A stretch of DNA of 64,000 nucleotides from Alphaproteobacteria bacterium (GTDB taxonomy: Bacteria > Pseudomonadota > Alphaproteobacteria > JACAEB01): positions 1,981-65,980 of the forward strand of contig JACAEB010000217.1 of the NCBI GenBank assembly GCA_013389075.1, given 5' to 3'. Made by a program: the position numbers and the translations under genes. Within the stretch, counting starts at the first letter, position 1, and every line of letters begins with the position of its first letter. The notes beneath the pieces were generated by a model. That model had not been told where the DNA came from. It worked only from the letters and a program-made list of their open reading frames with translations, and ran no database searches. Of this stretch, positions 3,127-54,535 are shown piece by piece.

Positions 3127-4137
3127 ATGCCCGCACCGAAGCCGACCCCGGCCGCCTCGCGCACGGCCATCGGACACGTCCTGATCCTCGTCCTGATTCT
3201 CGCGGCGCCCTCGGCGCTTGCCGAGGACACATGGCTCTACAAGGCGGAGACCGGGCCCCATGCCGTTGCCGTCGCCGACGATCTCGGGCTCGCCGATGCC
3301 GCCCGGAACAAGACCATCCCCTACCGCGTCACCTATCCTTCGGACGCGGAGGGCACGCTTGCGGTCATCCTCTTTTCCCACGGGGCCTACGGATCGAAGT
3401 CGAATTACGTGCCGCTCGCCGGTCACTGGGCGAGCCATGGCTATGTGGTGATCCAGCCCACCCACGAAGACAGCGTCAGCCTCGGCAATCGCCTTGGCGA
3501 TCCGTCCGTGTTCACCGCGGAGATCTCGCAATCGCGCCCGCGCGACATCAGTGCCCTGATCGATGCGCTCGGCGACATCGGCGTGCCGGGGCTCGAGGGC
3601 CGGCTGGATCCGGACCGCATCGGCATGAGCGGGCATTCCTACGGCGCCGGCACGACGATGATGATCGCGGGGATGACTCTCTACAGCGCGGACGGGACCG
3701 AGCGCCTCAATCTCGGCGACCCGCGTGTCAAGGCCGCTGCGGTCCTGTCGGGCCAGGGACTGGGCGAGGGACGCACGAAGATCAGCTGGCAGAGCGTCAC
3801 CATGCCCCAGCTCGTCCTCACCGGCACGCGCGATCATTCGGGCCGCACCGGCGCCCCCTTCACCTGGCGGACCGAGCCCTTCTTCTACGGGCCGGACGAG
3901 CGGAACTACCTTTTCATCGTGGAAGGCGCCGATCACGGCTTTGGCGGCATCGCGAGCGCCAGCGAGTCGCTCGAGGGACGGCGCCCGCCCAATCCCGAGC
4001 ATGTGCGCTACGTGGAATCCGTCACGACCGCCTTCTTCGACGCCTGGCTGAACGGCTCGCAGGACGCCTGGGCCTTCTTCGACGAGGCCCGCGTCAATGG
4101 CGGATCGGAGGGTGCCGTGACGCTCGACGTGCGCTGA
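3127..4137 (+). CDS. Secreted alpha/beta hydrolase (dienelactone hydrolase / PAF-acetylhydrolase-like esterase)
   Basis: Signal peptide. GxSxG nucleophile elbow [22 protein letters not shown] upstream. Confidence 0.7.
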
Positions 4138-6211: not shown

Positions 6212-6467
6212 GACCTCGTGGCCGGCCGGCCGGTGTTCTGCCAGGATGGCGCATCCACGCAGGCACAGGCCCGCCGGACGGGCTGTGGGGGCCTTCGCAA
6301 ACGTCACCGACAGGATCGACGCTTTGAGGAACCCGCAGCTTCAACTGTGGATTAACCAAGGCTGTCGCATGGTCGGGCCGTCCGAGGCGGCCGGCGACGG
6401 GACGGACCGGCGCAAGATGCGCCCGTCCTCCGCGCCCTGAGGCAGCCCTACAGAGGAGGCGACGGAC

Positions 6468-11369: not shown

Positions 11370-11957
11370 TCAGCCGCGTCCGGTCGGTTCGTCCCGCAAC
11401 GTCAGTGCCCCAATCGCCCTCACCGTGCTCGCCTGAGGGCCGGCGGGGCTTTCGGCCTCCGCGACGGCGAGTTCGACCGGCGTGTCGGGGGAGAGATCCT
11501 CGAAGCGGGGATCCACGACGGCGTTCTTGTGAAAGTAGATCTCGCGCCCGTCCGTGGTCGCGATAAATCCGTAGTCGGAGAAAAGACGAAGAACGCGGCC
11601 TTGCAGCGGACCGGCAAGCGTCTTCACATCGCCACGCACCTTCTGGGAGTGGTGCTCGAGCTGGCGCTCCATCGCGTCGAAGGCATCGCGCACCGCAAGA
11701 TACGAATCCAAATGGGCCTCGGCACTGCCGGGGTCGCGGCTGACCACGAGTTCGCGATCGGGCACGCGCACCTCGATCCGGACGTGATAGGCCCGCGAGG
11801 CCTGAGAGGGGCTGCGATGGGGGACCTCGACCACGACGCGGCACGAATTGATGTGGCGGAAGAAGCGATGCAGCTTGTCGGCCCGCTCGCGCACCCGGGC
11901 CTCGAGGGCGGACGAGCTGTCCATATTGTGGAAGGCGATCTCGAGCGGCGTGTCCAT
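11370..11957 (-). CDS. hpf: Ribosome hibernation promoting factor, long form
   Basis: 195 aa. N-terminal RaiA/HPF domain (MDTPLEIAFHNMD…AYHVRIEVRVP…) plus a C-terminal dimerisation-type domain (GRVLRLFSDYGFIATTDGREIYFHKN). Confidence 0.8.
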   Translation of the reverse strand: MDTPLEIAFHNMDSSSALEARVRERADKLHRFFRHINSCRVVVEVPHRSPSQASRAYHVRIEVRVPDRELVVSRDPGSAEAHLDSYLAVRDAFDAMERQLEHHSQKVRGDVKTLAGPLQGRVLRLFSDYGFIATTDGREIYFHKNAVVDPRFEDLSPDTPVELAVAEAESPAGPQASTVRAIGALTLRDEPTGRG

Positions 11958-12924: not shown

Positions 12925-13149
12925 CCCCTGAAAACCCTTGCCGCGACACCGGGTTGCGCTCACGTCCCACGCATCGGGAGAGGCGGAAGATCCTCCGCCC
13001 ACGTCCCCCATCCCGACGGCGAGCGGCAGCAGCACTCAGGACCGGGAACCTTGCCGGATGTCCACACTTGTCCCCATGCGCCTGCCGGCCGGACAGCCGA
13101 TGCGGGACGCGCGATCACACCCCTCTTCATGAATGACGGGAGACGCACA

Positions 13150-13509
13150 ATGCCTTCAAGACCATCCCTGCGAACGAGCGCTATCGCACTCGCCGCCGCC
13201 CTCGGTCTCGGGCTCACCGCCAGCGCCGCCAACGCGCAATGGTGGGACGACGAGGAGCTCTACGAGGACAATGCCTACTCGGAGGGCTATTACGACGACT
13301 ACGAATATGACGACTGGTACTACGACGAATACGACGAGAGCTTCTACGATGACGAGGACTGGGGCTGGAATGACGACTACGAGTACGACGACACCAGCTA
13401 CTATGACGGGTACGGATATACGCCGACCGAGGATTACAGCGACTATTACGAGCCCGACTATCTGACCGAGGACGGCGATTTCGATCGGGAGTGGTGGGAC
13501 TGGTTCTGA
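13150..13509 (+). CDS. Secreted, extremely acidic Tyr/Trp/Asp-rich low-complexity protein (about 120 aa)
   Basis: RBS GGGAGA. Signal peptide MPSRPSLRTSAIALAAALGLGLTASAANA. Mature part is QWWDDEELYEDNAYSEGYYDDYEYDDWYYDEYDESFYDDEDWGWNDDYEYDDTSYYDGYGYTPTEDYSDYYEPDYLTEDGDFDREWWDWF. Confidence 0.6.
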   Translation: MPSRPSLRTSAIALAAALGLGLTASAANAQWWDDEELYEDNAYSEGYYDDYEYDDWYYDEYDESFYDDEDWGWNDDYEYDDTSYYDGYGYTPTEDYSDYYEPDYLTEDGDFDREWWDWF

Positions 13510-13557: not shown

Positions 13558-14421
13558 ATGCCCAGCACCTACCAGAAGACGCCGCTGAGGCTGACCAAGG
13601 TCTCATCCCTCGCGCTGCTGAGCGCCGCCCTTTTCGCCACCCCCGCCGTGGCCGGCGACAAGGGCGGTGACAGCTATGGAAAGAAGAAGAGCGGTTATGA
13701 GCAAGGCATGAAACGCCATGGCTCCGACAAGGGCGACCAAAAGAGCCAAAGGAGTGACATGAACCGCTCGCAGCAGCAGCAGCAGGCCGGCCGCACCCTG
13801 ACGGGCACCGTGGTCCAGACCAAGGAGGTCCGTCGTCGCGATACCGGCAAGACCAATCTTGTCGCGCAGATCGAGCGGCAGAACGGGGAACGGATCATCG
13901 TCGACCTCGGCAACACCGACCAGTGGTACCAGGACGATTTCCAGAATGGCGACCGTGTCTCGATATCCGGAAACCCCGGTCGCGTCGGCAACCGCCTCGT
14001 CTATTTCGCCAAGACCGCCACGATCGACAACGAGCAGGTCAAGATCGAACGCGATCCGGGAAACCGCAAGTCGAAGACCCAGAACGATTCGCGTCAGATC
14101 GAGGGGCAGGTGTCCCAGACGCGGCAGATGAACGTTCGCGGTCAGGACACGCAGACCGTCTGGGCGCTGATCACCACCGATCAGGGCAATTATGTCGTCG
14201 ATCTCGGCGAGGCGCGCGACTTCAGCGCGAGCGATCTCAACAACCAAACGGTGAGCGCGCGAGGCCGCGACGTGCGCGTGCGTGATCGCATCGTCTTTCT
14301 CACCGACCAGTTCCGCATGAACGGACAGACCTACACGGCACTCCGGCCGGCCCGTGTCATCATGGGCTATGCCCGGAATGAGTCCGCACAGTCGGGCAAT
14401 CAGCAGAGCGGTCGACGCTAG
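13558..14421 (+). CDS. Secreted protein with two tandem ~85-aa beta-rich repeats and a polar Q-rich linker
   Basis: RBS AAGGAGGG. Signal peptide. Internal repeat: GERIIVDLGNTDQW…GDRVSISG…RLVYFAKTATIDNEQVKIER versus GNYVVDLGEARDFSASDL…QTVSARGRDVRVRDRIVFLTDQF…ALRP. Confidence 0.65.
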   Translation: MPSTYQKTPLRLTKVSSLALLSAALFATPAVAGDKGGDSYGKKKSGYEQGMKRHGSDKGDQKSQRSDMNRSQQQQQAGRTLTGTVVQTKEVRRRDTGKTNLVAQIERQNGERIIVDLGNTDQWYQDDFQNGDRVSISGNPGRVGNRLVYFAKTATIDNEQVKIERDPGNRKSKTQNDSRQIEGQVSQTRQMNVRGQDTQTVWALITTDQGNYVVDLGEARDFSASDLNNQTVSARGRDVRVRDRIVFLTDQFRMNGQTYTALRPARVIMGYARNESAQSGNQQSGRR

Positions 14422-14580: not shown

Positions 14581-14655
14581 TCAGGCGAGCCCGACGAGCG
14601 AGAGCACGGCCAGCACGACCACGACGAGCCCGATCACATAGAAGACATTGTACAT
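14581..14655 (-). CDS. Uncalled 24-aa hydrophobic peptide (MYNVFYVIGLVVVVLAVLSLVGLA)
   Basis: Below the ORF-track size cutoff. AAGGAGG sits 6 nt upstream of ATG. Single TM helix. Lies immediately downstream of the DUF3618 stress gene on the same strand. Confidence 0.45.
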   Translation of the reverse strand: MYNVFYVIGLVVVVLAVLSLVGLA

Positions 14656-14683: not shown

Positions 14684-15853
14684 CTACGGAACAGTGGATC
14701 CGGGCGGCGAGACCGAACCCGCACCATTGCCATGGCGATGGGCTTCCGCTTCGGCGCGTCCGGCGTCGATCGCCTCCTCGCCGACGCGGCGCGCCTTTTC
14801 GACGACCGAGTTCGCGGCCCGGGCGGCGTCCTCCGGCGTCAGGCCCTCGCGACGAGCCGCTTCCGAGGCGGCCTCGCCCATCCGCCCGGCCACGTCGCCC
14901 GCCGTCGTCGCCGCATCGCGGGCCGCCCCTCGCGCGGCCTCCCGGAGCTCGCTGCCGGTCTCTCCGAGCCAGCGATCTTCCGTCCGCGTGCGCGGAAGCA
15001 GGCTGCCCAGAAGAGCGCCGAGGGCAACGCCGACGGCGCCCACGACGAGCGGATGATCGTCATAGTACTGACTTGCCTGGTGCCCGAGGGCGCGGGCGCG
15101 ATCAGCGCCCGCATGCGCGGCGTGCCGGGCGCCGTCCCTCGTGCCGTGCCAGAGCCGGGCCCCCTGGGCGGCGATCCTGTGACGGGCGCGGCTCGCCCGC
15201 TCCGAAAGCGATTCGAACGCGTGGTCGACCCGCTCCCGGAAGGCGTGGACTTCTTCTTCCGCGCTCTTCTTGAGCCCGAGCGCGCCGGCCTTGGCCTCGG
15301 CAAGGCGCTCGCTGAAGCGATCCGCCATCTCGCCCGTCTCCTGGCGGACGCCGGACAAGGTCCGGTGGACGCGGTCATGATGTTCGACCGCTTCCAGATC
15401 ATCCGGATCGAGAGGTTCTTCGCGGTAATAGGCACCGTGATATCCGCGCGCGAAGCCGGTATCGCCCGATGCCGGCGTGGGGCCGATGGTCTCGTGGGGC
15501 GAGACGCCGCCCGCATCGTGCCGGGGCATGGTGGGCGCGAAGGCATTCGCGCTTCCCGATCCCGCGAACGCACCATTGCCCGAATGGCCAGCGCCCGTCC
15601 GATGACGCGCGTCCGACATCATCAGCCAGGCGACACCTGTCACCACGAGGGCGAGCGGGAGCGGATCGGCCTTCACCCGACGCGCAATGTTCTCGCCGAA
15701 CTCGGCGCCTTCCTGCCGCGCAAGGCCCAACGCCCGGTCGAGCAGCTCGCCGGGGCTGATACGATCCTTCAACGCCTCGATGGTTTCGTCCATCTCGGCG
15801 CGCGTCCCGCGGATCTCGCCTTCGAGTTCGGCGGATCGTGCATGTGCGCTCAT
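14684..15853 (-). CDS. DUF3618 domain-containing stress protein (membrane-anchored)
   Basis: N-terminal DUF3618-like coiled region (SAELEGEIRGTRAEMDETIEALKDRISPGELLD) with a TM segment. Ends at TAG. Confidence 0.7.
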   Translation of the reverse strand: MSAHARSAELEGEIRGTRAEMDETIEALKDRISPGELLDRALGLARQEGAEFGENIARRVKADPLPLALVVTGVAWLMMSDARHRTGAGHSGNGAFAGSGSANAFAPTMPRHDAGGVSPHETIGPTPASGDTGFARGYHGAYYREEPLDPDDLEAVEHHDRVHRTLSGVRQETGEMADRFSERLAEAKAGALGLKKSAEEEVHAFRERVDHAFESLSERASRARHRIAAQGARLWHGTRDGARHAAHAGADRARALGHQASQYYDDHPLVVGAVGVALGALLGSLLPRTRTEDRWLGETGSELREAARGAARDAATTAGDVAGRMGEAASEAARREGLTPEDAARAANSVVEKARRVGEEAIDAGRAEAEAHRHGNGAGSVSPPGSTVP

Positions 15854-16275
15854 TTCATCTTTTCCTTTGCGAATTTGGCGTCATCCCGGACCGTCTGGAC
15901 GGTGCGACCGGGAATGAGGTTGTAGGCGGACAGTTCCGAGCGGCCGCGCAGAACCAGCGCCAGACCGATCACGGCGACGACGCCCACGATGATTGCGGCC
16001 AGCCAGGCGGGCATCGCGCGCGCCAGGCCGTAGACGACGGCATCGAGCAGAACGATCAGCGCCGCGAGCGAGAGGATCAGGCCCGTGGCCAGCGACACGA
16101 TGCCGCCCATGACATCGCCGGCCTTCTCCGACATCTCGGCGCGCGCAAGCGCGATCTCCTGACGGAACAGCGTGCTCAGCTGTCCGACGAGGTCGCGCAG
16201 GAGCGCCCCGATGGACCTTGGGTCTTCGCGGCCATCCCTCGCATTGAGGTGGACATCGTGCGGAATATCGCTCAT
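15850..16275 (-). CDS. Phage holin family / DUF1469-like membrane protein of general-stress clusters
   Basis: 141 aa with two TM segments. RBS GGAGGAGG. ATGA-type overlap with neighbours. Confidence 0.7.
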   Translation of the reverse strand: MSDIPHDVHLNARDGREDPRSIGALLRDLVGQLSTLFRQEIALARAEMSEKAGDVMGGIVSLATGLILSLAALIVLLDAVVYGLARAMPAWLAAIIVGVVAVIGLALVLRGRSELSAYNLIPGRTVQTVRDDAKFAKEKMK

Positions 16276-16811
16276 GGCAGGCCTCCTCCTGTCTCGTCCA
16301 GTCCGGTCGGATCGGCATAGGGCGTATACGGATCGGTGTCGCGCGTCCGGCCGGCCGCTTGGCCCGCACGGGCCAGCCGGCTGAGAGCAAGGCCGAGAGC
16401 CACCGATCCGCCCAGAAACAGGGCTGGCTGGTGTCGCGCGAAATCGCTGACCTCATGCGAGAGCGCGCTCATGTTCTGTGACCGGATGTGTTCCGATGCC
16501 TGATCCACTCTGCGCGCCGCCTGCTCGGCGGCGTTCGAAATCAGGCGATCCCGGTCCTTCAACACATCGGCGGAGGCCCTGAGGCCGGCGGCGAGCGCGT
16601 CGAAATGACCGGCGATGGCGCGTTTGCCCTGCTCGGCGGCATTGCCGGCCTCGGCGCGCAGTCCCTCCGTCACCTCGTCGACCGCCTCGCGCGCGCTCTG
16701 CCGCAGAGCCTTCGGCGCTTCCCGCAGCTTCTCGACGGTTTCCTCCGTCCGGGCCGGACCGGGCTCGCCGGTCCCGGCGCCTTGGGGATGGTCGGATGGG
16801 CTTTCGGACAT
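16272..16811 (-). CDS. DUF883 (ElaB/YqjD-like) stress protein with C-terminal TM anchor
   Basis: 179 aa. Coiled N-terminus and C-terminal PALFLGGSVALGLALSRLA. RBS GAGGAGG. Confidence 0.7.
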   Translation of the reverse strand: MSESPSDHPQGAGTGEPGPARTEETVEKLREAPKALRQSAREAVDEVTEGLRAEAGNAAEQGKRAIAGHFDALAAGLRASADVLKDRDRLISNAAEQAARRVDQASEHIRSQNMSALSHEVSDFARHQPALFLGGSVALGLALSRLARAGQAAGRTRDTDPYTPYADPTGLDETGGGLP

Positions 16812-16854
16812 TACGGGCCTCCTCTTGTTGGTCGTGTGGCTCCCGGCGCGCCGG

Positions 16855-17298
16855 TCAGTCGGCCTTCAGGGACTGATAGTGAGCGCCCATTTCCTCGGCC
16901 TTCTTCTCGTCGATGACCTCCTGCGCCTGCGGAAACATCTCATCCTCCTCGTCGGAGATGTGATGCTCGAGCGCCTCCTTCAGCTCCCGGATCTTCTCGA
17001 TGAACTCGTCGGAGGTCTTGTCCATCGCCGAAAGCTCATCGAGCATGGTTTTCGCTTCCTCATGCTCGCTCAGCGCATCGCGAACTTCCTCGCGCGCCTC
17101 GCTGTCGGCCTTCTCCTTGCGGAACTGCGGATAGAACTCCTCCTCCTCGAAGCGCGTATGCACCTCGAGATCGGCCTTGATCTCCTCGAACAGCTTCTCG
17201 CGTGTCCGCTCCGCGCCGTCGGAGCTGTCCAGAATCTTGGACAGCGCAGAGGTCACCTTCTCGTGATCATCGTGCAGCATCTTGTAGATGGTCGGCAT
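16855..17298 (-). CDS. Hemerythrin HHE cation-binding domain protein
   Basis: H…HxxxE and HxxxxE spacing (MLHDDHEKV…EVHTRFEEEEFYP…LEHHISDEEDEMFP). Start at the second ATG, 6 nt after AAGGAG. Confidence 0.8.
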   Translation of the reverse strand: MPTIYKMLHDDHEKVTSALSKILDSSDGAERTREKLFEEIKADLEVHTRFEEEEFYPQFRKEKADSEAREEVRDALSEHEEAKTMLDELSAMDKTSDEFIEKIRELKEALEHHISDEEDEMFPQAQEVIDEKKAEEMGAHYQSLKAD

Positions 17299-17343
17299 GT
17301 GCATCTCCTTCAGCGGGCGGACGGCCACACGGCTTCCTGCCCT

Positions 17344-17379
17344 TCGCAGCCAAAACCCGGGGCTTGGGCAATCTGTTCC
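17344..17379 (-). promoter_or_regulatory. EcfG-type promoter-like element GGAAC-N17-GGTT upstream of the hemerythrin stress operon
   Basis: Minus-strand GGAAC (17379..17375) and GGTT (17357..17354). Shares the palindrome CTGTTCCCC-N8-GGGGAACAG (17373..17398) with the plus-strand promoter. Confidence 0.4.
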
Positions 17380-17391
17380 CCCGCCTCACGG

Positions 17392-17416
17392 GGAACAGCG
17401 GGGCTCCTTGCGCGTT
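17392..17416 (+). promoter_or_regulatory. EcfG (general stress response sigma)-type promoter GGAAC-N16-CGTT upstream of ku
   Basis: GGAAC at 17392-96, 16-nt spacer, CGTT at 17413-16. ku GTG at 17455. Confidence 0.5.
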
Positions 17417-17454
17417 TTTCCGGATCGGGCGGAGCATCGAGGAGCAAGCAAGCT

Positions 17455-18321
17455 GTGGCGGCACGCGCCTATTGGAGTGGCTATCTGCGCCTGTCCCTGG
17501 TGACGATCGGCGTGGAACTCTATTCGGCCGTCACCACACAGGCGGCGCTGCCGCTTCACCAGATCCACCGGCCATCGGGCCGGAGGGTGCGGTATGAGAA
17601 GGTGGTGCCCGGACTTGGTCCCGTGCCCTCCAAGGAGATCGTGAAGGGCTACGAGATCGAACGCGACGACTACGTCCTGCTCGAGCCGGACGATCTCGAC
17701 GCCATCAAGCTCGAGAGCCGGCGCGCCATCGATCTCGTCCAGTTCGTCGGACATGACGAGATCGACCCCCGCTACTTCGAAAAGCCCTATTACGTCGTGC
17801 CGCGCGACGGCGAGGCGGCGGAAGGATTCGCCGTCATCCGCGAGGCATAGCGCGCGGAGCGAAAGGCCGGTCTGGGGCAGATGGCCGTGCGCGGACGGGA
17901 TGCGATCGTCGCCATCAAGCCCTGCGGCAGGGGGCTGCTTCTCGAAACGCTGCGGTATGCGGACGAGATCCGCGCCAGCGACCGCATCTTCGCCGACATC
18001 GAGGATCAGGAGATCGCTCCGGACATGCTGGCGCTCGCCCGCGAGCTGATCGGGCGCAAGACCTCTCCCTTCAAGCCCGAGGCGTTTCGCTCGCACTATG
18101 CCGAAGCCCTTCGGGAGCTGATCGAGACGCGGCGCCGGAGCGGCACGATCACCGCGCCGCGCGAGGATGCGGCGAGCGACCGGTCGAACGTCGTCGACCT
18201 CATGGAGGCGCTGAAGAAGAGTCTGGCGACCGGCAAGTCCGAGGGGCCGGGCAAACCGACACGTCAGCCGTCTCCCGCCAAGGGCAAGGGACGCAGCCCC
18301 CGCAAGCGGGCGAGCGGATGA
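17455..18321 (+). pseudogene. ku: Ku protein (NHEJ) interrupted by a single in-frame TAG at 17848..17850
   Basis: Two same-frame ORFs (17455..17850 and 17881..18321) together give a colinear ~289-aa Ku: MAARAYWSGYLRLSLVT…AVIREA[TAG]RAERKAGLGQMAVRGRDAIVAIKP…LETLRYADEIR. Confidence 0.75.
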
Positions 18322-18325
18322 GGCC

Positions 18326-20689
18326 ATGGCAGGCAGCACCGACGATCCGCTGACGATCTATCGGGCGAAGCGCGACTTCGCGCGGACCCCGGAGCCCTCG
18401 GGCAGTGGCGAGAAGCGCCGCGGCGGGCCGCCGGTGTTCGTGGTTCAGGAGCACCGTGCGCGGCGGCTCCACTACGATCTGCGCCTCGAACTCGACGGCG
18501 TCCTCAAGAGCTGGGCGGTGACGCGCGCGCCCGATCTTCCGCCTGCGGGCAAGCGCCTCGCCATCCGGACGGAGGATCACCCGCTCTCCTATGCCCGCTT
18601 CGAGGGAGAGATACCGGAAGGCTATGGCGCGGGAGAGGTACGCATCTGGGATCACGGCACCTGGACGCCGACATCGGATGCGGCGAAGGGGCTGTCCGAC
18701 GGTCATCTCGGGTTCCGGCTCGATGGCCAGCGACTGACCGGCCGCTTCGCGCTCGTCCGTATCGAGACGGACAAGCGCGGCAAGGAGAGCTGGCTCCTCG
18801 TCCGCCCGCGAAAGGACACGAACAGGGCCGCCGGCCCGCCCGCCTTCGTCCCCCCGCAGCTCGCGAGCCTTGCGGAAACTCCGCCCGAAGGGGCGGACTG
18901 GGTTCACGAGATCAAGTTCGACGGCTACCGCATCCAGGCGCAGCTTGGCGGCGAGGCGCCGCGTCTCTTCACGCGAAGCGGCAGGGACTGGACGGATCGC
19001 TATCCCTCGATCGTGAACGCGCTCGCGGAGGTGCGGGCCGAGAGTGCCCTGATCGACGGCGAGCTCGTAGCGCTCGACCCGGGCGGCCAGACCCGGTTCG
19101 ACTATCTTCAGTCACAGGACGATGCAGCCGAGCTCGTCTATTACGCCTTCGACCTCCTCTTCCTCGACGGCGAGGATCTGCGCACGCGCAGCCTGCGGGA
19201 CCGCAAGGCCGCGCTCCTGCGGATCCTGCCCCGAAATGCACGGCGCCTGCGCCTGAGCGAGGATCATGCCGGCCCGGGGGGCGCCGTTCTGGCGGCCGCC
19301 TGCCGGATGGGCCTTGAGGGCATCGTCTCCAAGCGGGCGAGCGCCCCCTATCGCTCCGGGCGCGGAGAGGACTGGCGGAAATCGAAATGCGTCGGCCGGG
19401 ACGAGTTCGTGATCGTGGGCTACCGGCGCTCGACGGTTCCGGGCAAGGCCTTCGCCTCCCTCCTCCTCGCCGCGCGGAAGGGAGGCGCGCTCGCCTATTG
19501 CGGGCGAGTGGGGACGGGCTTCGACGAGCGGGAGGCGGAGCGGCTGGCAGAACGCATGGCGCGGCTGGTGCGGACCCAGCCCGCCCTCCCCGTCCCCGCC
19601 GACGCGCGCCGCGAGGCGGTGTGGCTGTCCCCTCGCCTCGTGGCGGAGATCGGGTACACGGAGTATACGGCCGACGGGCGTCTGCGCCATCCGCGCTTTC
19701 TCGGCCTGCGCGAGGACAAGCCTGCCGAGGAGGTCGACATGCCACCTGCCCGCCCCGGCTTGCCCGAAGGTCCGTCCGCTCCCGGAGCGCAGACGGTCGC
19801 CGGCGTCCGGCCCACCCATCCGGACCGGCTCCTCTATCCGGGCCAGGGCCTGACGAAACGTCAGCTTGCCGAGTACTATCTCGCTCGCGCGGACGACATC
19901 CTGCCCCATCTCGCCGGCCGCCCCCTCAGCCTCGTGCGCTGTCCGCGCGGGGAAGGCGAACCCTGCTTCTTCCAGAAACATCACACGGCCTCGACACCGG
20001 ACTCCCTCGACAGCCTCGCCATCACCGAAGGGTCGGGGACAAAGGCCAGCTATCTCGTCATCCGCACGCTCGAGGGTCTCGTGGCGACGGCGCAGATGGG
20101 CGCGCTCGAGCTGCATGTCTGGGGTGCGCGCCGCGACCGGATCGAAGCGCCCGAACGGATCGTCTTCGATCTCGATCCGGCCCCTGACCTTCCGTTCACC
20201 GAGGTGAAGTTCGCGGCCGTCGAGCTGCGGGCCGTTCTGGAGACGCTGGACCTCGTCTCGTTTCCGCTCCTGACCGGCGGCAAGGGCATCCATGTCGTGG
20301 TGCCGATCGCCCGACGCTCGGGCTGGCCGGAGGTGAAGGCGTTCGCGCGCGGCCTCGCCCGGCGTCTTGCCGCCGTGGCCCCCGAACGCTATCTCGCGAC
20401 GGCCTCCAAGGCCGAGCGCGCCGGGCGGATCTTCATCGACTGGATGCGCAACGAAAGGGGCGCCACCGCCATCTGCCCGTTCTCGCCCCGCGCCCGCCCC
20501 GGGGCGCCGGTCGCGACGCCGGTATCGTGGTCCGAGCTGCCGGAGCTCGACAGCGCCTCGGCCTTCACGATCCTCACCCTGCGCCAGCGGCTCTCCCGCC
20601 TTCGCCGCGATCCGTGGGCGGATTATTTTTCGACCCGGCAGTACCTGACCACATCGCGTATCGCCGCCGTCACGAAGGCCCGGCCATGA
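18326..20689 (+). CDS. ligD: ATP-dependent DNA ligase LigD, multidomain (phosphoesterase - ligase - polymerase/primase)
   Basis: N-terminal PE domain (VFVVQEHRARRLHYDLRLE), ligase KxDG motif (EIKFDGYR) and C-terminal Prim-Pol domain. Starts 5 nt after ku. Confidence 0.9.
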   Translation: MAGSTDDPLTIYRAKRDFARTPEPSGSGEKRRGGPPVFVVQEHRARRLHYDLRLELDGVLKSWAVTRAPDLPPAGKRLAIRTEDHPLSYARFEGEIPEGYGAGEVRIWDHGTWTPTSDAAKGLSDGHLGFRLDGQRLTGRFALVRIETDKRGKESWLLVRPRKDTNRAAGPPAFVPPQLASLAETPPEGADWVHEIKFDGYRIQAQLGGEAPRLFTRSGRDWTDRYPSIVNALAEVRAESALIDGELVALDPGGQTRFDYLQSQDDAAELVYYAFDLLFLDGEDLRTRSLRDRKAALLRILPRNARRLRLSEDHAGPGGAVLAAACRMGLEGIVSKRASAPYRSGRGEDWRKSKCVGRDEFVIVGYRRSTVPGKAFASLLLAARKGGALAYCGRVGTGFDEREAERLAERMARLVRTQPALPVPADARREAVWLSPRLVAEIGYTEYTADGRLRHPRFLGLREDKPAEEVDMPPARPGLPEGPSAPGAQTVAGVRPTHPDRLLYPGQGLTKRQLAEYYLARADDILPHLAGRPLSLVRCPRGEGEPCFFQKHHTASTPDSLDSLAITEGSGTKASYLVIRTLEGLVATAQMGALELHVWGARRDRIEAPERIVFDLDPAPDLPFTEVKFAAVELRAVLETLDLVSFPLLTGGKGIHVVVPIARRSGWPEVKAFARGLARRLAAVAPERYLATASKAERAGRIFIDWMRNERGATAICPFSPRARPGAPVATPVSWSELPELDSASAFTILTLRQRLSRLRRDPWADYFSTRQYLTTSRIAAVTKARP

Positions 20690-20769
20690 CCATGCCCGGG
20701 TCACACCAGAACCTGCGCGGGGGAGGAACGCCCTCCGCCCGGCCACGCCACGGAAAGGAGCCAGATCCC

Positions 20770-20928
20770 ATGGACATTCTCAGGATCATCGTCGCCATTC
20801 TGCTGCCGCCCCTCGGGGTCTTCCTCCAGGTTGGACTCGGCGCGCAATTCTGGCTGAATATCCTCCTCACCCTCCTGGGCTACATACCGGGGATCGTGCA
20901 TGCCATCTGGATCATCGCCCGCCGATGA
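20770..20928 (+). CDS. YqaE/Pmp3 family stress-induced membrane peptide (52 aa)
   Basis: MDILRIIVAILLPPLGVFLQVGLGAQFWLNILLTLLGYIPGIVHAIWII. RBS AAAGGAG. Confidence 0.8.
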   Translation: MDILRIIVAILLPPLGVFLQVGLGAQFWLNILLTLLGYIPGIVHAIWIIARR

Positions 20929-21277
20929 GGACGCGCTTCTGGCGGACGCGGAACGGCTTGCCGACTGGCTCGACCGGCGCTTCGTCCTTCCGGGAACGAG
21001 GATCCGCTTCGGCTTCGACTCGCTGCTTGGGCTGGTGCCCGGCATTGGCGACAGCCTGACCGCCGCGATCGGGGTCTATGTGATCGTGCGCGCGCACGAG
21101 GCGGGCGCGCCGCCGCTTCTTCTCCTGCGCATGGGCGGCAACCTGCTGCTCGACGCCCTCGTGGGATCGATCCCGCTCCTGGGCGATGCCTTCGACGTCG
21201 TCTTCAAGGCCAATGCGCGCAATGCCCGCCTCCTGCGGCGGCACGTGGAGCGCCGCCGCAGCCGCATGCCGTCCTGA
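20900..21277 (+). CDS. DUF4112 domain membrane protein
   Basis: …RIRFGFDSLLGLVPGIGDSLTAAIGVYVI… Start overlaps the Pmp3 gene by 29 nt, so the start is uncertain. Confidence 0.55.
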   Translation: MPSGSSPADEDALLADAERLADWLDRRFVLPGTRIRFGFDSLLGLVPGIGDSLTAAIGVYVIVRAHEAGAPPLLLLRMGGNLLLDALVGSIPLLGDAFDVVFKANARNARLLRRHVERRRSRMPS

Positions 21278-50576: not shown

Positions 50577-53500
50577 TCATGGCGCGGCCTCGCGGCCCCG
50601 CTCGATCAGGTCCTGCACCCGGAAGCCCACCGTTCCCTCCCGCAGGAGTTCGGCGAAGGCGCCGCTCGTGCGGATGCGAATCTTGAAGGGATAGCCGTCA
50701 TAGACGGACGGATTGGCCCCCAGCAGCTCGACCCCCACATCGAGCCGGCCATCCACCGCCCCGTCGAGCGTCAGCGCCAGCTCCTCCCATTCGAAGTTAT
50801 CAAGGGCGCGGAACAAAAGCGAGGTTTGTTCGTTGCCGGCCTCCGCCGCCGCCGCGCCCTCGCCCCTGTAGGACAGGATGCCCCCGGGCGGGCTGCGTCC
50901 CGTGAGGCGGCCATCGACGATGCGGGCGCCGTCCGGCCTCACCACCACCGGCACCCGGCCATCGAGACGGCCGCTCCCGCTCAGCCCCGGCAGACGCAGG
51001 AGCGGCAGCACCTCGGCAAGATCGAGCCCGTCGGCCCGGAAGACCACGTCCCGCTCGACCGTGTCCGGCGCGAAGGAGAGGCGCGCATCGCGCACGCCAA
51101 CCTCGCCCCCCGCGAAGGGCCAGATCGCCCTGTCGAGGGCCAGCATCGCGTCGGGCTCGAGGGCGAAGACGATCTCGCCGTTCTCGAGCGGCACCGGCCC
51201 GTCGATCCGCGCGACCCGGGCCGTCTGGAGGCCCTCGGTCAGCGGCGGCAGGAGGCTCTTCAGCCGAATGTCCGCATCGAGACCTTCGACCGGCGCGAGA
51301 TAGGAGAGGAACTCGATGCCCGCAAGGCTGAACGCGCCGCGCGTCGAAAGCCGCCCGCCGCCCCAGTCGGCATGGGCCGAGCCCCCCGCCCGGCCCGCGA
51401 CCTCCGCCACGAGGCCGCGCAAGGCAGGCACGAGCGTCTGAGGCTGGAGCCCGTTCGGGGTGAAGACGAGATCAGCGAGGGTGATGTCGGCGGCGCCCTT
51501 GCCCGTTTTGAGCGCGTGACGTCCCGAGAAGTCCCCGAGCCTGCGCCCCTCCGCCTCCAGCGTGCCGGAGAAGCGGGCCTGCCCCGCCTCGATCTGCGCC
51601 GTGCCGGCGGCGAGCACGGGCGCATAGCGGGCGGGCCGTGCGAGGTCGGCGACGCCGAGGCGCGGGACGGTCAGCGTGCCGGAGAGGATGGCGCTGCCCG
51701 TGCCCGACAGGGTGGCCGTCAGGGCGAGCGGGCTCAGCACGGCAAGATCGGGCAGCGCCCGCATCTGCCCGCCCTCGGTCTCGAAGGCGAGCTGCCAGGT
51801 CTCCGCCTCCGGCGCATAGGAGAGCGCGAACCGGGTCTCCGGCAGGGTCCCCTCGAGCGCCGGCAGGCCCTTGGCATCGGGCGGACCCTCGAGCCGCACG
51901 CCGCGCGCGGGCAGCGCGCCGGCGAGAACCAGCGCCGGCCGGTCGTCCGCCTGCGGCGCGAAGCTGAGGAAGGGCACGGCATCGCCCCGGTCGCAGAGCG
52001 AGAAACCCTCCGGTCCCGGATGGATGGCGATTTCCGCAAAATCGATGCGCCTCGCCCGGAGCGTGCCGCACGGCCCCTCTCCCGAGCCGAGCCGCAGCGC
52101 GAAGGCCTCCGGCTCGCGTGTGAAGCTCGCCGGCAGGACGAGGGCCGTATCGGCCAGCGTGAGCCAGGAGAAAAAGGCCCCGTCGGCCTCGGCGTCGATG
52201 GCGACCTGCCCGGCGTAACGCTGCGGCGTTCCGCGGGCGGAGAGGCCGAAGGCGCGCGGCGCCAGCGAGAGGCCGCCTGCCCGCCACGGGCCGCCCTCGA
52301 GGGCGAGCCGGTCGAGCGCGAAGCGCTCGACGCGGAGCGCGCCGTTCTCGCCCACCGGGGCAAGGCTGAGCGCGGCATCGAGTTCGGCCGTGAGCGTCAC
52401 CGGATCCGCCCGCCGCAGCACGAGCGCGGCGCCCGCGCGCACGGATGCCTCCGCGCCGTCCGCATCGAGCCTCAGCGCGAGGCCGCCCTGCTCGGGATCG
52501 ACATAGGTCCCCACGGGCAGCCCGGCCCTCTCCGGCGCCGCCTCCCCGCCCGGCTCCCAGACGAGCGAGAGGAAGGCGCCCTCGGCGGACGCCGTCTCGG
52601 GAGCCAGAACGGCGACCCCCGTGCTCCGCCAACCCTCTTCGCCGCCGTGGGAGACATCGGCGTCGAGCACGAGGCGGGCGCCCCCGCCGAGCGCGCCGAA
52701 GGCGCCGAGGAGATCGTCCCGGAAGGGACGGACCGCATCGAGCTCGAGCGCGGCCCGCGTCGAGGGCGCGAGCGTCCCGAGCGCGCGATCGAAGACCGGC
52801 GGCGGCAGCGACAGCGCCGTCACGTCGAGGCGGACATGACCCGACCCGTTCGCCCCTGCCCCGTCATACCGGGCGGAAAGGACCGCCTCCCCCGCCGCAG
52901 CCTCCGCGAGGGCGAGATCGGCGAGACGCGCCGTGACCGCCCCCTCGAGGCGCCCGCGCGTGAGGCGCATCTCGCCCGTGAGCGCGGCGAGCGAAAAGCG
53001 CTCCGACAAAGGCTCCGTCCCCGGACGATCGAGATCGAGGTCGAGATCGAGCACGCCCTCGCGTATGCGCACGGTCGCGGTTCCGGCGATGGAGCGCTCG
53101 GGCGCGCCGCCACGCGCGATGACGAGGTCGGGACTCGCACCGAGGCCGCCCTCCCCGTCGGGCGCCAGCGCGCCGTCGAGCCGGATCGTGAACGGACCGT
53201 CGGGTGTCTCGAGGTCGAGTTCGGCCTCGCGCAGGGTGATGGGCGGCAGGCTGGCGGGATCAAATCCCGCGCCCCCGCCTCCGCCCGCCGGCAGGGGCAG
53301 CACCAGGCCCGCGCCCGCGCTGTCGAGACGTGCGCCAAGGCGCAGCCCGTCGATGCGGACGCTCCCGAGCCGGCCGCCGAGGAGACCGAGCGGGGTCCAG
53401 CCGATCTCGGCCCCGGCGAGCGACAGCGCACCGGGCGGGCCGAGAGAGCTCTCGCCGAGTCGCAGACCGAAGAGGCCTGCCCGCTCCACCGTGAGGCGCG

Positions 53501-53681: not shown

Positions 53682-53917
53682 GCCGCCGCCCTTTCCTGTT
53701 GCCCCGTCGCCGGATGATGGGCAGCTCGCCCCTCATCGTCAAACGGGGAATGCGGGATGACGCGCCTCAAGCGCGCGGGAACCGGCCGTGGTAGAAAGGC
53801 GTTGCTGTTCCTGATGGGCGCCCTCGCGCCCCCAGGGATCACAACGCGGGATCCGGTCCGGCCAAGACGCCCTGTCGCGGCCGGACGGTCGTCCGCCTGA
53901 GATGGGAAACGCAGACC

Positions 53918-54535
53918 ATGATGACCAAGACAGTCCCCGCCCCGGCTCCCTTCTGGATCCGCTGCCTGACGGGGTTCGCGGCGCTGCTCGCCGCCGCCGC
54001 TCTCACCGTGCCGGGATCCGCGCGCGCCCAGGACGAACCGGCGGCGTCCGAGGACACGTTCGCGGAAGACGAGATCGTGAGCGCCGTCGCCGAGTTCTTC
54101 GGCGTCACAGCGGAAGCGGCCGGCGAGGCCGTGGAACGGATCTTTGCCGACAATGGCCGCCCGAACGGCTACATCAAGGGTGAGGAAGCGGCCGGCGCCA
54201 TCGGCGTGGGTCTGCGCTATGGCGAGGGCACGCTCTACATGAAGAGCGGCGCGACGCGGCAGGTCTTCTGGCAAGGCCCCTCGATCGGCTGGGACTTCGG
54301 GGGCAATGCCGCCAAGACCTTCACCCTCGTCTACAACCTCCAGCGCGTCGACGACATCTACCAGCGCTTTCCCGGGGTCGAGGGCTCGGCCTATTTCATC
54401 GGCGGGATCGGCGTGAATTATCAGCGCGCGAACAACATCACCCTCGCGCCCATGCGGGCGGGTGTCGGCTTCCGCCTCGGCGCGAATGTCGGCTATCTCG
54501 CTTATTCGCGTCAGCGCAACTGGCTTCCCTTCTGA
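53918..54535 (+). CDS. DUF1134 (EipA-like) periplasmic envelope-integrity protein
   Basis: Signal peptide. Conserved GYIKGEE…GLRYGEGTLY…WQGPSIGWDFGG…IGGIGVNY core. Confidence 0.7.
   Translation: MMTKTVPAPAPFWIRCLTGFAALLAAAALTVPGSARAQDEPAASEDTFAEDEIVSAVAEFFGVTAEAAGEAVERIFADNGRPNGYIKGEEAAGAIGVGLRYGEGTLYMKSGATRQVFWQGPSIGWDFGGNAAKTFTLVYNLQRVDDIYQRFPGVEGSAYFIGGIGVNYQRANNITLAPMRAGVGFRLGANVGYLAYSRQRNWLPF

Follow-up and report, generated by a model that had tools for sequence, protein, structure and literature searches.

Predicted back-to-back σEcfG-type promoters between ku-ligD and a hemerythrin gene unit in an uncultured alphaproteobacterium

Control of NHEJ genes by the general stress sigma factor σEcfG has been described in several Alphaproteobacteria. 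In S. meliloti, reporter fusions and an rpoE2 mutant revealed that ku3-ku4 and ligD4 depend on RpoE2 (EcfG), a dependence that raises end-joining activity under stress, and a putative EcfG box is found upstream of a ku gene in ~90% of ku-bearing Alphaproteobacteria (Dupuy et al., NAR 2019; PMC6379672). Likewise, ku-ligD (SGRAN_4136/4135) of Sphingopyxis granuli TFA belongs to the direct general stress response (GSR) regulon. In that organism the AAC of the -35 box is nearly invariant, with GGAAC and GCAAC the commonest forms, while 14 different -10 boxes occur; the EcfG holoenzyme transcribes promoters carrying CGTT, TGTT, CATT or GGTT in vitro (PMC7083833). The EcfG consensus is GGAAC-N16-CGTT (PMC7083833, PMC3892343), written by Francez-Charlot et al. 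in 2016 as GAAC-N16,17-C/GGTT (PMC4814048). At the core GSR locus, nepR-ecfG and phyR are usually divergent, with EcfG-dependent promoters on both units (PMC4814048). A different divergent arrangement is the symmetric bidirectional promoter, described as having key elements that coincide on opposite strands, with one polymerase binding event excluding the other (Warman et al., bioRxiv 10.1101/2020.01.31.928960; PMC12825309). Our literature search found no paper linking EcfG with a bidirectional promoter, and neither ligD nor hemerythrin comes up in the S. melonis regulon paper.

We analysed a 64-kb stretch of DNA (the window, meaning this whole stretch) from a metagenome-assembled genome (MAG) labelled as alphaproteobacterial. 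Within it, a 156-bp gap separates ku-ligD on the plus strand from a hemerythrin-domain gene and its downstream neighbours on the minus strand. The features of this locus are as follows.

14684-15853, minus strand: gene for a DUF3618 protein (Pfam), with a 4-nt overlap with the Holin-X gene
15850-16275, minus strand: gene for a Holin-X / Phage_holin_3_6 (PF07332) membrane protein (Pfam), with a 4-nt overlap with the 179-aa gene
16272-16811, minus strand: gene for a helical protein of 179 aa whose C-terminal part includes a hydrophobic segment; the gene has its own RBS and starts 43 nt past the hemerythrin stop
16855-17298, minus strand: hemerythrin-domain gene (PF01814, E 5.7e-19), first of its unit; most likely start ATG 17298, with AGGAG 6 nt upstream
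17354-17357, minus strand: GGTT, predicted -10 box of the hemerythrin-operon promoter, after a 17-nt spacer; a documented functional -10 variant
17375-17379, minus strand: GGAAC, predicted -35 box of the hemerythrin-operon promoter; located at -81 relative to the ATG and contained in the left palindrome arm (17373-17381)
17392-17396, plus strand: GGAAC, predicted -35 box of the ku-ligD promoter; located at -63 relative to the ku start and contained in the right palindrome arm (17390-17398)
17413-17416, plus strand: CGTT, predicted -10 box of the ku-ligD promoter, after a 16-nt spacer; matches the consensus GGAAC-N16-CGTT
17455-18321, plus strand: ku (Pfam Ku), GTG start, AGGAG at 17440-17444, TAG in frame at 17848-17850
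18326-20689, plus strand: ligD, with phosphoesterase, ligase and primase-polymerase domains (Pfam), starting 4 nt past ku

Pfam confirmed the Hemerythrin, Holin-X, DUF3618, Ku and LigD identities that had been proposed in an earlier reading of the sequence alone (the sequence-only reading), while its DUF883 label for the 179-aa protein was not supported by Pfam, even at E<=10. A four-gene minus-strand unit is plausible because no terminator-like site was found in the 43-nt gap between the hemerythrin and 179-aa genes and because the genes downstream overlap by 4 nt, so that hemerythrin, the 179-aa gene, Holin-X and DUF3618 may be co-transcribed. Several smaller features accompany this unit. 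A perfect 12-nt palindrome, CCGGCGCGCCGG, lies directly after the hemerythrin stop at 16843-16854 and has no T-run. A relaxed motif, GGAAC-N16-CATT, at 15913-15937 (minus strand) falls within the Holin-X gene, 60 nt 5' of the DUF3618 start, and is possibly an internal promoter or a chance match. Just 3' of the DUF3618 gene, an ORF at 14581-14655 (minus strand) encodes a small hydrophobic peptide, MYNVFYVIGLVVVVLAVLSLVGLA, and may be the final gene of the unit.

The gap between the two units, measured from ATG 17298 to GTG 17455, contains an inverted repeat made up of CTGTTCCCC at 17373-17381 and GGGGAACAG at 17390-17398, with 9-bp arms that are 100% complementary and a loop of 8 nt. Direct reading of the sequence and a repeat finder both recovered it, in agreement with the palindrome, the gap length and the motif positions that the sequence-only reading had given. 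Each arm holds one GGAAC. On the plus strand, GGAAC (17392-17396) is followed by N16 and CGTT (17413-17416); on the minus strand, GGAAC (17379 to 17375) is followed by N17 and GGTT (17357 to 17354). Both strands thus carry a GGAAC -35 box, a spacer of 16-17 nt and an accepted -10 box (CGTT or GGTT), as expected of an EcfG promoter. A distance of 12 bp separates the two -35 boxes, the spacers and -10 boxes are likewise distinct, and no sigma-70-like promoter was found in the 156-bp gap. Scans of the 64-kb window gave 3 exact GGAAC-N16/17-CGTT matches compared with 0.70 expected (3 of 100 shuffles reach 3), and one match to the GGTT form compared with 0.46 expected, which is not significant alone. 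The chance of finding both motifs, correctly oriented, in one 156-bp gap is <1e-5, a rough estimate from the motif scans. We consider that the gap probably contains two independent, back-to-back σEcfG (ECF15 group) promoters.

On the ku-ligD side, we compared 80 alphaproteobacterial ku loci, taken as one genome per species, in which the N-terminal part of Ku is 56-72% identical. In nearly all of these loci ku is followed by ligD. GGAAC is present on the ku strand 32-150 nt upstream in 45 of the 80, usually with CGTT, GGTT, CATT or GATT 16-17 nt later and then often GA. The full pattern GGAAC-N16/17-[CGT][GA]TT was found upstream of ku in 27/80 loci, compared with 1/80 on the opposite strand and 0/80 in two coding controls. 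Distances from the start codon cluster between -48 and -66, a range that includes the window site at -63. Five Erythrobacteraceae ku loci (L023, L031, L044, L068 and L079) lack GGAAC; by eye, these carry a conserved GAAACC...GCT(T/G) at the same position, ~40-60 nt upstream, which is possibly a lineage-specific -35/-10 variant. In several of these genomes, hemerythrin and ku form a divergent pair in which GGAAC is absent and a GAAAC-type -35 is apparent by eye.

On the hemerythrin side, the window protein matched 29 relatives, the best of them 74% identical, and the nearest named species was Caenispirillum salinarum. No close relative of the locus was found in the collections searched, where the best Ku was 72% identical. 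We examined the genomic context of 10 distinct hemerythrin relatives (58-74% identity) and found NNAAC-N16/17-[CG][GA]TT between -54 and -77 relative to the start codon in 10/10. The individual forms included GGAAC-N16-CATT (L082, L085 and L088), GCAAC-N16-CGTT (L089 and L090) and GGAAC-N16-GGTT in a Rhodospirillaceae MAG (L091), which has the form GGAACA...GGTT in common with the window. None of the 10 relatives has ku as a neighbour, and their neighbours vary. The motif therefore follows the hemerythrin gene and not its neighbourhood, as expected of a dedicated promoter.

These comparisons bear on whether only the ku-ligD promoter is truly EcfG-type, with the minus-strand GGAAC-N17-GGTT a chance match and the hemerythrin operon transcribed from another, unrecognised promoter. 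The absence of enrichment for the GGTT form in the window is in keeping with that account, as is the window motif's position at -81, which is slightly outside the range of the relatives and farther from the start than in any of them. Yet an EcfG-type motif precedes the gene in every relative examined, GGTT is a validated -10 variant, the gap offers no sigma-70-like alternative, and the correctly oriented pair is very improbable by chance; we thus regard a spurious minus-strand motif as unlikely. With motifs at similar distances in 27/80 ku loci and 10/10 hemerythrin relatives, the earlier proposal that both are σEcfG-type promoters is very probably correct.

If both promoters operate as predicted, stress would act through the established pathway in which phosphorylated PhyR sequesters NepR and frees σEcfG. 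The σEcfG polymerase would then transcribe ku-ligD rightward from GGAAC-N16-CGTT, and the hemerythrin, 179-aa, Holin-X and DUF3618 genes leftward from GGAAC-N17-GGTT. Transcription is predicted to start near 17423 (plus strand) for ku-ligD and near 17347 (minus strand) for the hemerythrin operon; the latter replaces the previously suggested 17335, given the usual 6-9 nt from -10 box to start. Two holoenzymes would thus initiate divergently, ~76 bp apart, with core footprints (-40 to +20) predicted to nearly abut at 17383-17387. Independent firing would be the default expectation, and mild interference or coupling through supercoiling would be possible. We infer EcfG dependence of both units in the window organism by analogy with the described systems; ecfG, nepR and phyR were not among the ~35 window ORFs scanned.

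The locus resembles the symmetric bidirectional promoters introduced above in having divergent promoters in a locally symmetric region. In that system the shared element is reportedly the sigma-70 -10 box, with start sites ~18 bp apart. The 156-bp gap has no such common element: 12 bp lie between its -35 boxes, each strand has a -10 box of its own, and ~76 bp lie between the predicted start sites. We therefore rejected a symmetric bidirectional promoter with a shared -10 box. For the same reason, the claim of the sequence-only reading that one shared control element governs both units was not sustained, since -35 box, spacer and -10 box are all present separately for the two promoters.

The palindrome could nevertheless be a unit in its own right. 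It might bind a dimeric transcription factor as an operator, or be a designed symmetric element, and co-regulate the two gene units in addition to EcfG or in its place, for instance through mutually exclusive polymerase binding in the two directions. The arms are symmetric for 2 bp past GGAAC on either side, which extends the 5-bp pentamer to a 9-bp arm, and the four flank positions would agree by chance with ~1% probability. Both arms also have an A directly after GGAAC, a base found there in 1/31 comparable sites, and interference between polymerases is conceivable where their predicted core footprints nearly abut. This oddity of the flanks is weak evidence, as it was the palindrome that drew attention to the site in the first place. 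Against an operator, the palindrome does not recur in the 64-kb window even with 3 mismatches, and its 43 exact copies in a metagenome collection are heterogeneous in loop, GC content and context. Many of those copies are coding or lie inside longer hairpins; no copy is flanked by a -10 box on each side or has a ku or hemerythrin homolog nearby. We therefore rejected a recurrent operator.

A LexA (SOS) operator was also considered. The alphaproteobacterial LexA box is a direct repeat, GTTC-N7-GTTC. The gap instead has the inverted repeat GTTC-N14-GAAC, and this candidate was rejected.

Other back-to-back promoters offered a further comparison. In 767 kb of sequence unselected for the palindrome, we searched for the pattern (-10 box)-N16/17-GTTCC-N0..40-GGAAC-N16/17-(-10 box) and found 5 full pairs, the window included, compared with 0 in 40 Markov shuffles. 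The full pairs outside the window, and one further pair with another -10 variant (L072), were as follows.

L066, Glacieibacterium: 17 nt between the -35 boxes; PAS histidine kinase / ku
L014 and L015, Hyphobacterium and a related MAG: 0 nt between the -35 boxes; FMN reductase / small membrane protein
L091, Rhodospirillaceae MAG: 36 nt between the -35 boxes; DUF3008 / hemerythrin
L072, Polymorphobacter: 14 nt between the -35 boxes; another -10 variant

The most compact pair seen is that of L014 and L015, at 3687-3736 just upstream of ku, where the -35 boxes abut (GTTCCGGAAC) with a -10 box on both sides. Back-to-back pairs thus occur in four other lineages, and the divergent partner genes are unrelated to each other. 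In L066 and L014/L015, the pairs whose arms were compared base by base, there is no match beyond the pentamer save for one additional base pair in L014. The sequence-only reading had asked whether a palindromic dual layout recurs; back-to-back pairs do, while the extended symmetry is absent from L066 and L014/L015. With spacings of 0, 14, 17 and 36 nt elsewhere and no conserved symmetry in those flanks, the idea that the palindrome acts as a unit did not survive. An operator or designed symmetric element is accordingly very unlikely. We assign a similarly slight probability to the narrower proposal that the 9-bp symmetry (GGGGAACAG on both strands, with the atypical A) is itself selected, with EcfG holoenzymes competing or cooperating at the 26-bp core or a dimeric co-regulator as yet unknown acting there; if true, the symmetric core might fix the ratio of NHEJ to membrane-stress unit expression. 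The geometry of a pair of inverted -35 pentamers spaced by 12 bp, with four matching flank bases added, accounts for the palindrome, and the four extra matches are most likely a coincidence.

A 9-bp perfect stem could instead act as a nucleic-acid structure, such as a hairpin terminator, an RNA element or a cruciform, and 17398-17411 (plus strand) scored as a weak terminator-like site. However, terminator-like calls are at background frequency, and the folding energy of -9.5 kcal/mol (z = -1.6) is equalled by 15/200 shuffles. The stem has no T-run after it, and 17200-17560 has no Rfam match. The palindrome also lies upstream of both predicted start sites, between divergent starts and away from any gene end, and so would be transcribed by neither unit. 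We rejected an intrinsic terminator on these grounds (no T-run, no gene end, folding z of -1.6), and consider a structural role of any kind extremely improbable.

With two independent σEcfG-type promoters as the preferred reading, the locus can be set beside the described systems. As at S. meliloti ku3-ku4/ligD4 (PMC6379672), an EcfG-type box lies upstream of NHEJ genes; unlike the separate ku and ligD units of S. meliloti, one predicted promoter would serve a ku-ligD operon, a second predicted EcfG-type promoter stands back-to-back with it, and ku has a stop codon. S. granuli TFA likewise has a ku-ligD operon with a GGAAC-N16-CGTT-type box and flexible -10 boxes that include GGTT and CATT, but it belongs to a different order from the Rhodospirillales-like MAG of the window and has a different divergent neighbour gene. 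As predicted for the 156-bp gap, the phyR / nepR-ecfG core locus has two divergent units served from one intergenic region by EcfG-type promoters in both directions; its genes are regulators, whereas those of the window are effectors.

Thus, of the interpretation put forward by the sequence-only reading, two EcfG-type promoters are supported and the shared element is not, nor is the regulatory link new. Published work has placed NHEJ genes under EcfG/RpoE2 (PMC6379672, PMC7083833), and divergent EcfG pairs are typical of the core locus (PMC4814048), so that both the regulatory link and the divergent-pair layout are already established. As stress-sigma control of ku-ligD is documented in Alphaproteobacteria, the window pair is an ordinary example: one further predicted case, in an uncultured Rhodospirillales-like lineage, of the published rule that alphaproteobacterial ku-ligD is under the general stress response. 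The five genomes with pairs suggest that head-to-head general-stress genes often acquire back-to-back -35 boxes, 0 to 36 nt apart, a layout that helps regulon annotation and leaves current understanding unchanged.

The ku gene itself is interrupted. Its in-frame TAG at 17848-17850 divides the Ku beta-barrel domain into segments matching Pfam profile positions 2-126 and 129-188. The corresponding codon specifies Leu in 69/73 homologs and Met in 4/73, and TTG or ATG is a single substitution away from TAG. A Logan assembly of SRR10095374 (L081), identical base for base to window positions 15374-21061, carries the same TAG and is not necessarily independent of the MAG. The TAG probably marks a recent pseudogene or an error of assembly or consensus. 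The stop may have left the NHEJ arm non-functional, in which case the candidate promoter may now drive a defective gene; this suggests that the arm may be decaying in the lineage while its promoter is still intact. Downstream of ligD, an 80-nt gap precedes a Pmp3/YqaE proteolipid gene (20770-20928, plus strand) that overlaps a DUF4112 gene (20900-21277, plus strand), and these two genes may be co-transcribed with ku-ligD. A GGAAC in this gap, at 20725-20729, has no recognisable -10 box.

Elsewhere in the window, a third exact motif, GGAAC-N17-CGTT at 53778-53803 (plus strand), is intergenic and correctly oriented ~115 nt 5' of 53918-54535, a gene of the EipA family (envelope integrity protein A, PF06577) that is possibly a further general-stress target. 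A match at 50810 is within a YdbH-like coding region and is probably due to chance. Two relaxed motifs were left uncounted: one at 6328 is upstream of infC (IF-3), not an obvious stress gene, and one at 12957 to 12933 (minus strand) is ~1 kb from the real start of a gene that combines an HPF domain with a cold-shock domain (CSD). That gene, an ORF at 11373-11957 (minus strand) of ~195 aa, joins a Ribosomal_S30AE hibernation factor domain and a C-terminal cold-shock domain in a single frame; GC3 suggests that its real start is at MDTPLEIAF, and it looks like an unusual stress-type fusion. Finally, 13051-13509 and 13558-14421 (both plus strand) encode two apparently secreted proteins with no Pfam match, one extremely acidic with short repeats rich in Tyr, Trp, Asp and Glu (YYDDYEYDDWYYDEYDE...) and the other 287 aa long and rich in Gln and Arg.
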